Shown: in pieces, positions 2,149-4,441 of the stretch
How positions within the stretch are numbered: the stretch's first letter is position 1
Layout of the letters: every line of letters starts with the position of its first letter
IMG/VR virus record: IMGVR_UViG_2690316115_000002
Origin: a virus
Lineage: Duplodnaviria > Heunggongvirae > Uroviricota > Caudoviricetes
Direction: 5' to 3' (one strand)
Length of the DNA stretch: 4,704 nt
Program-made: the position numbers and the translations under genes
The notes under the pieces: model-generated
Database searches by the model: none
What the model saw: the letters and a program-made list of their open reading frames with translations, nothing else
What the model was told of the DNA's origin: nothing

Positions 2149-3545
2149 AATAAACGCTCCGTTTTACTGCCCGACATGCGGTTATTGCTGTATCTGCGCG
2201 GATTGCCCGGCGTCATGGGTGTGGAAAGAACCCGGGCACTCTCCTGATCCACAGGCAGAAAATGCCCGTTATGAAAACGCCGGTAAATGGTACCCAGCGT
2301 GCCATTACGCTGTTTCGTGATGTTGATTTCTGCTATGCCTCTGGCCTGAGTTTCCGGGTTGTATACCTCATCCCTGTAAAGCATCAGAATGATGTCGGCA
2401 TCCGCCTCGATTTCCCCGGAGTTTTTCAGGTCCGAGTTCATTGGGCGTTTATTGGGTCTGGATTCCACGCCGCGGGAGAGCTGGCTCAGAGCAATCAGCG
2501 GAAAACCGCCGGATTTTGCCAGGCTTTTAAGTCCCTTTGAGATTTCCCCCACCGCAAGGTCGTGACGCCCCGTGCTGCGGGTTTTAATCAGGCCGAGGTA
2601 ATCGACCACCACCAGCGCCGTTTCCGGGTGTTTCATCCGGTGGTGCTTCGTGGTTGCACATATCTCATCAATGGTCAGGTTTGCCTGGTCCACCATCCAG
2701 ATATTACGCCCCGTCATTCGTCCCACGCCCTGCGAGAAACGCGCCCAGTCTTCATCTTCAAAACGGGCAACAGACTTAAGACGGGATACCGGCATTCCAC
2801 CGGCAGCAGACACCATACGTTCACCAATCTGGATGTTCGCCATCTCCATGGTGAACAGAAGCACGCCATGCCCCTGCTCAGTCACCTTGTCGATGATGTC
2901 CAGCGCAAGTTCGGTTTTCCCCATCGAAGGACGGGCGGCAATGAATACCAGGTCTCCGGGCTCCATACCGCCCGTTTTTGCGTCCAGTTCATCAATACCG
3001 GTCATCAGCGCCCTGGATTTCTCCAGTCCCTGATTGCGGCATTCAACACGGTCGACCACTTCCGGAAGGACATCATCAATGTGAACCGGCTGAATGACGC
3101 CCTTTCCGGTCGACAGTGAGGCCATCATGTTCTGCGCATCCTTCAGGGCATCCTCGGCTGCTTCACAGGTATACGCATCACGTAAATTCTGTAATGCTTC
3201 AGTCAGTGTTTTTTCTGCATCGCGCAGTGCGGCATTGCGCCGCAACGCTGCGACATAGTGCTCCAGTGAAGACTTCACCCAGGTTTTGCGTCCGGTGTCG
3301 GTAATCACCGGGGCAAGTTCCGGCATCTCATTGCACAGCAGTACGGGGTCAATGACGCCGGATATGCGAGCCTGTCTGCAAATCCCCGCGTAAATATCCC
3401 GGTACTGACGCACAAAAAATACATCCGCCGGAAGTGTGGCCAGAATATCCATCACTTCCGGATCGGCCCCACGCAGAAAAAACGCACCGATGACAGCGCC
3501 TTCCAGGTCATCGTTACGCCATGCCGGGGTGTTCTGGCTGGTCAT
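2145..3545 (-). CDS. DnaB-family replicative DNA helicase, phage-encoded (466 aa)
   Basis: Walker A AARPSMGKTELALD, FTMEM, Walker B-like LVVVDYLGLI, and LSQLSRGVESRPNKRPMNSDLKNSGEIEADADIILMLYRDEVY, which closely parallels E. coli DnaB [43 protein letters not shown]. ATG at 3545 with GGAGGT 8 nt upstream. Start overlaps the upstream stop (ATGA). Confidence 0.93.
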   Translation of the reverse strand: MTSQNTPAWRNDDLEGAVIGAFFLRGADPEVMDILATLPADVFFVRQYRDIYAGICRQARISGVIDPVLLCNEMPELAPVITDTGRKTWVKSSLEHYVAALRRNAALRDAEKTLTEALQNLRDAYTCEAAEDALKDAQNMMASLSTGKGVIQPVHIDDVLPEVVDRVECRNQGLEKSRALMTGIDELDAKTGGMEPGDLVFIAARPSMGKTELALDIIDKVTEQGHGVLLFTMEMANIQIGERMVSAAGGMPVSRLKSVARFEDEDWARFSQGVGRMTGRNIWMVDQANLTIDEICATTKHHRMKHPETALVVVDYLGLIKTRSTGRHDLAVGEISKGLKSLAKSGGFPLIALSQLSRGVESRPNKRPMNSDLKNSGEIEADADIILMLYRDEVYNPETQARGIAEINITKQRNGTLGTIYRRFHNGHFLPVDQESARVLSTPMTPGNPRRYSNNRMSGSKTERLF

Positions 3546-4441
3546 GCGGCAACACCTCCGATACGAGAACGGTAGCTGGGCCAGTTAAACGACAACCAGT
3601 TGCGCCCGCCATCGGTGATCCTGTCGGCAATCCGGGGACTGATGAACGCCCACAATTCTTCCGGTGAAAGGTTGCTGATCAGGATAGTTGGCAAAATACC
3701 CTCATACCGGGCATTGATAATTTCCTGCAAAATGGCCATTTCAGCCGCACTGCCAAACTGAACGCCGACTTCGTCGACAATCAGCAAATCCAGTGACGCA
3801 TAATGCTCAATGACGTCATCCGCTGTTTTTTCACTGTCATTCCGCCAGCAGTTTTTCACAGCCCGGGTAAGGCGCATCACGTCGGTGATCTCCACACTGG
3901 CCAGATAGTTACGGATGATGTGTTTTGCCATTGATACCGCCAGATGATTTTTCCCGGTACCGCAACTGCCGGTCATAACAAGACTGGTACCGTTCTCCAG
4001 CATATCTGGCCAGTTCTCCGCATAGCGGCGACAGGCCGCAAGATTTCTGGCTGCGTCAGGATTAACCTCCAGATAATTATCAAACTCACAGTCCCGAAAA
4101 CGCAGAGCAATTCCGGCGTTATCAGTCAGTTCTTCCGCCTTGAGGGACGACAGTTCCATGGTCAAATCACTGGCCTCAGCGATCAAGCAGTCAGGGCAGC
4201 ATGAAATTTTTTCTCTGTCCTCGCCATTACGATCGATCCACACCAGTATATGCGTACGATATTTACCGTGTTTTTCGCAATATCCGCGACCTTCACGCAT
4301 CAGGCAGGAACGATAAGGCCATGGCTTTTCGCCCTTCTGAGCAAATGCAATCTCTGCCCGTAACTCATCCATTTCTGCCCGTAACTCATCCATTCGCGCC
4401 TGTAGTCTTGTTTGTTTCTCACGTTGGTCAATCGTCATCAT
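3542..4441 (-). CDS. DnaC-like helicase loader (AAA+ ATPase, DnaC/IstB family) with an N-terminal coiled-coil and Cys-cluster extension (299 aa from ATG 4441)
   Basis: C-terminal ~190 aa align by eye to E. coli DnaC: Walker A GSCGTGKNHLA (DnaC GKPGTGKNHLA), Walker B DLLIVDEVGVQ (DnaC DLLVIDEIGVQ), C-terminus FNWPSYRSRIGG (DnaC FNWDSYRSRVTG). The ORF track starts at GTG 4450, but that GTG lies inside the SD GAGGTG; ATG 4441 with a 6-nt spacer is preferred. Confidence 0.9.
   Translation of the reverse strand: MMTIDQREKQTRLQARMDELRAEMDELRAEIAFAQKGEKPWPYRSCLMREGRGYCEKHGKYRTHILVWIDRNGEDREKISCCPDCLIAEASDLTMELSSLKAEELTDNAGIALRFRDCEFDNYLEVNPDAARNLAACRRYAENWPDMLENGTSLVMTGSCGTGKNHLAVSMAKHIIRNYLASVEITDVMRLTRAVKNCWRNDSEKTADDVIEHYASLDLLIVDEVGVQFGSAAEMAILQEIINARYEGILPTILISNLSPEELWAFISPRIADRITDGGRNWLSFNWPSYRSRIGGVAA
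4353..4394. repeat. Perfect 21-bp direct tandem duplication (2 copies) inside the DnaC-like gene, in frame
   Basis: 4353-4373 and 4374-4394 are both tctgcccgtaactcatccatt, identical by direct reading; flanking bases differ on both sides. Encodes MDELRAE-MDELRAE (residues 17-30 of the loader). Confidence 0.95.

Follow-up and report, generated by a model that had tools for sequence, protein, structure and literature searches.

The stretch of DNA analysed here, called the window below, is 4,704 nt long and comes from a tailed-phage record (Caudoviricetes; IMG/VR record IMGVR_UViG_2690316115_000002). Its gene of interest lies on the minus strand at 3542-4441 (ATG at 4441, stop codon at 3542-3544), where an earlier sequence-only reading had correctly placed an open reading frame (ORF), and encodes a DnaC-like AAA+ helicase loader of 299 residues. 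Based on its sequence, its predicted structure and the analogy with characterised loaders, we propose, with a probability of about 0.7, that this protein is the helicase loader of a three-gene phage cassette in a lambdoid E. coli prophage, and that its N-terminal helical hairpin, stapled by zinc, would serve as the arm that grips the replicative helicase. As helicase-loader genes of prophages go, this one is ordinary: its N-terminal variant, though undescribed, is widespread, and it is not a new system.

The C-terminal ~200 residues form, as judged by sequence, an AAA+ ATPase of the DnaC type whose catalytic motifs are intact, and the homology with DnaC that had been noticed in the C-terminal two-thirds of the protein is borne out by three comparisons. 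A phmmer search aligns residues 93-296 of the loader with residues 44-242 of E. coli DnaC (6qel_G) at E 3.9e-29. The alignment by hhalign of a family profile built from 114 full-length homologues (53-96% identical overall) places residues 91-296 on DnaC residues 42-242, with E 4.1e-31 and 32% identity over ~200 residues. The AlphaFold model, compared by Foldseek with the PDB, has as its best match E. coli DnaC in the DnaB-DnaC complex (6qem_G, E 4e-14), followed by Aquifex DnaC, IstB, DnaI and DnaA; among the matches, 3ecc has E 3e-9. The AAA+ domain spans residues ~113-296 (3554-4105, minus strand; Pfam IstB_IS21, E 4e-14, and Bac_DnaA, E 1.4e-5) and carries a Walker A motif, GSCGTGKN, at 3947-3970, with K164 encoded at 3950-3952, and a Walker B motif, DLLIVDEVG, at 3764-3790. 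The Walker residues K164, D223 and E224 are unchanged across the 114 family sequences, as are N257, R270 and R274, so that the sensor and arginine residues are covered as well. The protein thus has what the broad family would lead one to expect, namely an initiator-clade AAA+ fold (PF01695 and PF00308 both above cut-off, catalytic residues intact) and an association with helicase and initiator genes, seen in the ATGA overlap with the helicase gene and in the upstream initiator of intact loci.

Within this family the loader belongs to PHROG 50, 'DnaC-like helicase loader', which matches residues 17-297 with E 1.9e-87 (PHROGs have no curated cut-off) and is matched by the N-terminal 110 residues alone with E 9.4e-7. 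The curated NCBIfam models all score below their cut-offs. The DnaC model NF005931 gives 124.9 bits against a cut-off of 357 (residues 97-299 on profile positions 45-243), the DnaI model NF006505 gives 38.3 bits against 228, and PRK08116, a model of DnaC-like proteins mostly from Firmicutes prophages, gives 109.4 bits against 189. The PRK08116 match extends over residues 49-280 (profile positions 10-239) and so reaches the zinc module described below. Because the DnaC equivalog score is 125 against 357, the loader is, on sequence, a DnaC-like paralogue and not a DnaC orthologue. In RefSeq the 299-residue product of related E. coli prophages is named only 'ATP-binding protein' (WP_000988266.1). 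The top Pfam name for the loader, IstB_IS21, could suggest an IS21-type IstB transposition helper instead of a replication protein, to which we give almost no credence: the helper model IS21_help_AAA (NF038214) scores 65 bits, below both its cut-off of 200 and the score of the DnaC model, no IstA transposase gene adjoins, an initiator and a DnaB helicase are the neighbours in every locus examined, and the closest structure is DnaC bound to DnaB.

The N-terminal part of the protein is not that of DnaC. No similarity of residues 1-~90 to DnaC residues 1-41 was detected by hhalign. The sequence-only reading had drawn the same distinction and is upheld in it, with a non-canonical region of ~90 rather than ~110 residues, since residues 91-110 align with DnaC; the linker helix, from residue ~91, follows DnaC from residue 42 onward. 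In the Pfam search for which that reading had called, no family is matched by residues 1-110 at E<=1, where only coiled-coil noise appears and neither DnaI_N nor zf-CHC2 nor any other zinc-finger family is found; NCBIfam models run on the N-terminus alone likewise return coiled-coil noise only. The N-terminal family profile has no match among PDB sequences at E<=10, and Foldseek finds nothing among viral predicted structures at E<=0.001. When residues 1-112 are searched as one sequence against 1.84 billion cluster representatives, only 12 matches result, all of them close family members or fragments; so divergent a domain escapes detection from a single sequence.

AlphaFold predicts a confident fold for this region. 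The predicted local distance difference test (pLDDT) score is 85.8 for the full-length protein modelled with 114 sequences, and 89.4 for residues 1-112 modelled alone with 26 non-redundant sequences. The two independent runs agree on a helix at residues 4-36, strands at 47-55, 59-69 and 75-79, and a second helix at 83-107/109. In these models the N-terminal ~90 residues would form an antiparallel two-helix hairpin tipped by a small three-stranded sheet. Helix 1 (residues 4-36; 4334-4432, minus strand) is charged and heptad-like, as expected from the charged helical segment noticed at the outset, and forms the predicted first arm of the hairpin. The three-stranded beta-sheet zinc module occupies residues 46-88 (4178-4306, minus strand), with strands at pLDDT 91-95, and helix 2, which is also the linker helix (residues 83-107; 4121-4195, minus strand), starts at the second zinc knuckle in the AlphaFold models. 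Helix 1 contains a perfect 21-nt tandem duplication at 4353-4394 (Tandem Repeats Finder: period 21, 2.0 copies, 100% match), by which MDELRAE is encoded twice and exactly one heptad is added to the helix. The 299-residue allele, which forms a 90% cluster of 416 sequences, compares with ~292 residues in all other family clusters. A diverged copy of the helix 1 duplication (MDDLRAEMDELRAE) is present in one further viral locus, L016.

The module carries a Cys/His site. The pattern C55-x2-H58-x23-C82-x2-C85 is invariant in 114 of 114 full-length homologues, and G59, S80 and P83 are near-invariant, while mean pairwise identity is ~0.50 over residues 1-88 against 0.78 over the AAA+ domain. The 26-sequence non-redundant alignment has 10 invariant N-terminal columns, four of which are C55, H58, C82 and C85, far more than chance would give. 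The other conserved N-terminal residues are the buried hydrophobics L13, F33, L66 and L105, and the surface varies; this combination of conserved ligands and core with a variable surface fits a scaffold role. In the models, C55-x2-H58 lies in a beta-hairpin turn between strands 47-55 and 59-69, and C82-x2-C85 is placed where helix 2 begins (ligand codons, on the minus strand, at 4277-4279 for C55, 4268-4270 for H58, 4196-4198 for C82 and 4187-4189 for C85). This is the layout of a zinc ribbon or treble clef, with two knuckles and four conserved ligands, and from sequence and model together the site very probably binds zinc. The cysteine cluster had been taken for a possible zinc ribbon on the strength of five cysteines. 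Three of them, C55, C82 and C85, are retained as ligands, and H58 is added as the fourth; C46 (in 'SCLMRE') is replaced by Trp in 104 of the 114 homologues, C81, which opens the 'CC' pair, is a cysteine in no more than 4 of the 114, and 25 residues, rather than 26, separate C55 from C81. The loss of two of the five cysteines first noted would be compatible with a cluster that is incidental and metal-free, on an N-terminus that is a coiled-coil spacer. This is very unlikely, given that all 114 sequences retain the four ligands in a region where identity averages ~50%, that they are kept in other genera at 32-46% overall identity, and that a hairpin turn and a helix N-terminus are the canonical positions of zinc knuckles. 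It is noted that CxxH…CxxC is also the signature seen in bacterial primase's zinc-binding domain (CHC2), a lead only, as zf-CHC2 is not matched at E<=1.

The module is widespread. A regular-expression check finds CxxH-x23/24-CxxC in 115 of 116 matches of 280-330 residues, and the sole exception, P0126, came from an N-terminal-only search and is apparently a spurious match. By tblastn, 606 of 50,697 phage records contain a relative, and several distant alignments begin exactly at the first ligand (residue 54/55). The loaders of Klebsiella phage RCIP0098, Vibrio phage R19R and Pseudomonas phage KLEP17-4 (42-32% identity) have CExHGxY…CxxC in the same columns, and that of Bacillus phage PfEFR-4 (22% identity), a full member of PRK08116 at 347 bits against the cut-off of 189, has CEHC…C-E-C there. 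When a search was seeded with these four phage proteins, the top 120 matches all carried CxxC/H…Cx(1-2)C; they are mostly B. cereus-group prophage proteins labelled 'DnaC' or 'DnaI', with the CxxC...CxC version of the motif. Among 80 related IMG/VR viral loci, 77 have the zinc motif and 44 have a helicase gene directly downstream. The 77 motif-bearing loci divide into 41 with a DnaB-type helicase directly downstream and 36 with none within the fetched flank, and loci of the second group presumably rely on the helicase of the host. The module is the N-terminus shared throughout a large clade of phage DnaC-like loaders, and probably the ancestral one. The sequence-only reading had taken the N-terminus for a sign of a different partner-recognition mode, which is not supported by a module this standard, found both with and without a phage helicase; it had also allowed that the region might prove to be the standard domain of a well-described family with non-conserved cysteines. 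The domain is indeed standard in a populous phage family, but its ligands are conserved and it is undescribed in the literature searched.

The proposal that the module grips the helicase draws on two characterised relatives. The N-terminal domain of DnaI is its helicase-interaction domain and binds zinc through Cys67, Cys70, His84 and Cys101 (PMC2673437, PMC1636449), and the N-terminal ~75 residues of E. coli DnaC bind DnaB (PMC6391071). By analogy, the site in the window loader would hold one Zn2+ ion, chiefly as a structural staple at the tip of the hairpin. The helical hairpin and the linker helix would grip the C-terminal face of the helicase in the manner of the DnaC and DnaI N-terminal regions, the AAA+ domains would assemble on the helicase and open or assemble its ring, and the helicase would be placed on single-stranded DNA (ssDNA) at the origin opened by the upstream initiator, after which the loader protomers would leave.

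Several observations weigh against this proposal. In five loci (L030, L036, L040, L042 and L045), helicases with 90-98% identity to that of the window are accompanied by loaders whose AAA+ part is 69-70% identical and whose N-terminal module is only 29-34% identical. Helicases that are nearly the same are thus found with modules of ~30% identity, meaning that one helicase works with very different N-terminal surfaces. Such a mismatch, as far as sequences can tell, argues against a tight, specificity-determining interface, and it also runs counter to the notion of a distinct partner-recognition mode. The N-terminal surface is fast-evolving (~50% against 78% for the AAA+ part). The ligand geometry is that of a model, being read from the positions of its secondary-structure elements. 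Three loaders of 190-197 residues, in loci L087, L088 and L091, are devoid of the N-terminal module yet lie beside a helicase gene, from which it follows that the module is dispensable in some lineages; this, too, tells against specialised recognition of a partner. Finally, the N-terminal profile set against the Bacillus-phage loader by hhalign aligns the motifs with a non-significant E of 0.4. Because of this value, the homology of the zinc motifs in the window and in the Bacillus phages is suggestive only, the basis of the link being the whole-protein alignment and the extent of the PRK08116 match. It should be mentioned, as to the makeup of these loci, that the cassettes of the first five are mosaic, with initiator identity varying independently (0.04-0.97). 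The three short loaders, from which helix and zinc module are both absent, start just before an 'IPPRF' motif; those of L087 (2974-3555) and L088 (2986-3567) have an initiator-like ORF directly upstream, and in L091 the end of the loader ORF lies closely upstream of the helicase ORF (1497-2903).

The main rival reading is that the module is a nucleic-acid- or initiator-binding element and not a helicase grip, recognising ssDNA or the origin, or docking on the DnaD-like C-terminus of the initiator, and so targeting the loader-helicase complex to the phage origin. Small zinc ribbons commonly bind nucleic acids, and the ligand signature shared with the primase domain points the same way as a lead. 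The module is kept in the 36 loci that have no phage helicase, where targeting to an origin or initiator would still be needed, and the same helicase tolerates widely different N-terminal modules. However, no zinc-finger family is matched in Pfam at E<=1, and the N-terminal region binds the helicase in both characterised relatives (PMC2673437, PMC6391071). Across loci, N-terminal identity has a Spearman correlation of 0.58 with helicase identity and a weaker one, of 0.30-0.42, with initiator identity; both are confounded by common descent, and the N-terminal rank correlations tell no more than the corresponding ones for the AAA+ domain do. Binding to nucleic acid or initiator is thus possible but, in our judgement, unlikely. 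Somewhat more doubtful still is the suggestion that the CHCC module is the ancestral working element of the phage DnaC/DnaI lineage, for instance a finger that engages ssDNA, the initiator or the primase site and times helicase delivery or release, and that it was lost by DnaC after domestication and remodelled in DnaI; if true, this would link DnaC and DnaI mechanistically. The helicase-gripping arm remains the function that we favour.

The neighbouring genes agree with a loader. The next gene on the minus strand (2145-3545) encodes a DnaB-family replicative helicase of 466 residues (Pfam DnaB_C, E 7.8e-74; TIGR00665, E 2.8e-92). The TGA of the loader gene and the ATG of the helicase gene overlap by 4 nt in ATGA at 3542-3545, and judging from this arrangement the two genes are likely to be translationally coupled. 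The loader ATG is preceded by GAGGTG with a 6-nt spacer, and the stop of the upstream gene (…KLTF, stop) overlaps this Shine-Dalgarno sequence. That upstream gene is an initiator gene, of which the last ~50 codons are present in the window (4452-4604, minus strand; ...ATFFGPDRHFEDYWQQ...KLTF, stop), identical to the C-terminus of a 330-residue protein in an intact prophage. In intact prophages such as that of E. coli ZH063, 10 nt separate the end of the initiator gene from the loader gene downstream of it. The 330-residue initiator matches PHROG 270, 'replication initiation protein', with E 4.6e-78, and its C-terminal half matches PHROG 1701, 'DnaD-like', together with replication-protein PHROGs. 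The same initiator-loader-helicase cassette is found in the Stx2a-converting phage Stx2_EH2201. Prophages of Klebsiella, Serratia and Pantoea have an HTH_36/DnaD_N initiator, a 292-residue loader and a DnaB-type helicase, with genes that overlap or nearly do so. A correspondence of the cassette with Eru3A in the replication typing of Stx phages (Llarena et al. 2021, PMC8044961) was considered and rejected: the 299-residue protein of Sakai Sp5 is unrelated, its helicase is only 28% identical, and its cassette has no loader.

The similarity of the window to intact prophages ends at 4604. From 4605 to 4704, on the plus strand, the window holds the left end of an IS3-family insertion sequence (IS), which starts with TGAACCGCCCCGGG and has a transposase ORF from 4659. 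Matches to positions 4600-4704, under the name 'IS3 family transposase', occur at 22,811 places spread over 3,553 complete E. coli genomes; from the terminal TGAACCGCCCCGGG and the ORF MTKNTRFSPEVRQR… we take the element to be IS629-like. In a set of 5,426 complete E. coli genomes the exact junction at 4604/4605 does not occur, and the insertion is therefore strain-specific. The IS3-family insertion destroyed the initiator gene, which is not missing by design. The absence of a complete initiator gene from the 4.7-kb window would fit the earlier suggestion that the unusual N-terminus possibly compensates for a missing initiator, by giving the loader an initiator-like function. This is extremely unlikely: the 3' end of the initiator gene is in place and its remainder was removed by the insertion, and in every intact relative examined, Stx2_EH2201 included, a full initiator gene lies directly upstream of the loader, whose N-terminus is the same. 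With its initiator gene destroyed, the cassette copy in the window is probably non-functional and prophage replication crippled.

In lambda, the origin lies within the initiator gene O. An iteron search in the initiator gene of an intact prophage found weak two-copy repeats only, a pair of 16-nt direct repeats (TGTTCCGTTATGACGT / TGTTCCGTTTTAACGT) 23 nt apart at 13923-13961 of locus L001. The pair could be a weak iteron-like mark of an origin within the initiator gene, although two copies may have arisen by chance.

Downstream of the helicase gene on the same strand are an ORF of 85 codons, a DUF968/HNH-like gene and an antiterminator Q gene, and the locus is the early-right region of a lambdoid prophage. 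The 85-residue ORF (1891-2148, minus strand) overlaps the helicase stop by 4 nt, is hypothetical in RefSeq, has weak matches of coiled-coil type only (Pfam BLOC1_2, E 1e-3, below cut-off) and is also kept in the Stx2a phage cassette. The DUF968 protein has 331 residues (849-1844, minus strand; PF06147, E 4.8e-81) and an HNH-like C-terminal half (HNHc_6, E 4.5e-6); the Stx2a phage annotation names it ydfU, and its gene lies between the replication genes and that of antiterminator Q. No match was found by an Rfam scan of the window, and a promoter and terminator scan of 3400-4704 gave none exceeding shuffled expectation.

Bacterial helicase loaders have two textbook examples, DnaC and DnaI, both thought to be derived from phage genes. 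Their helicase-binding N-termini look unrelated, and zinc binding is known only for that of DnaI. A large clade of loaders from phages of Gram-negative hosts, including the Stx-converting phages of E. coli, has an invariant CxxH...CxxC on a helical hairpin, and Bacillus phages have a four-Cys counterpart, so that the CHCC module is a probable candidate for the ancestral N-terminal architecture of phage DnaC-like loaders. The module has no database name, with no Pfam family and no solved structure found, and literature searches on a zinc ribbon in DnaC-like phage loaders returned DnaI work only. The window locus itself is a standard phage replication cassette, probably inactivated by the IS insertion.

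We have compared the window loader with the loaders already known. With E. coli DnaC (6QEL/6QEM) it shares a homologous AAA+ domain with the preceding linker helix, an N-terminal extension before that domain and a link in function to a helicase of the DnaB family, which for the window loader is read from the genes. DnaC differs in having ~41 residues before the aligned part and no Cys/His site, whereas the window loader has ~90, with a long helix and a zinc-type beta module, and is carried by a phage, its gene being coupled to that of its own helicase. B. subtilis DnaI (PMC2673437) likewise has a zinc-type N-terminal domain followed by a DnaC-type AAA+ domain, and its ligands are three Cys and one His, as predicted for the window loader. 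There is, however, no N-terminal sequence similarity between the two (DnaI_N is unmatched at E<=1), and the ligand order differs, being C67-x2-C70...H84...C101 in DnaI against C-x2-H-x23-C-x2-C here. The fold differs too, with four helices and two strands in the DnaI N-terminal domain against a two-helix hairpin and three strands in the model.

Among phage proteins, ORF013 of staphylococcal phage 77 is also a phage-encoded DnaI/DnaC-family loader homologue; it binds the replicative helicase experimentally and is a precedent for phage DnaC-like loaders (Hood & Berger 2016, PMC4887207). It differs from the window loader in that its target is the host helicase and that it works together with a partner inhibiting the host loader (PMC4887207), and staphylococcal phage relatives align with the window loader only from residue ~101, so that the N-terminal module is not shared. 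The PHROG 50/PRK08116 phage loaders (PfEFR-4 'DnaC', KLEP17-4 gp73, R19R gp44, RCIP0098 gp50 and that of Stx2_EH2201) have the pair of zinc knuckles, the linker helix and the AAA+ domain in common with the window loader. They differ from it in that the loaders of the Vibrio, Pseudomonas and Bacillus phages have a much shortened helix 1 or none, and that many of the phages have no helicase gene of their own. The Stx2_EH2201 loader is 94% identical to the window protein and is encoded in the same cassette.

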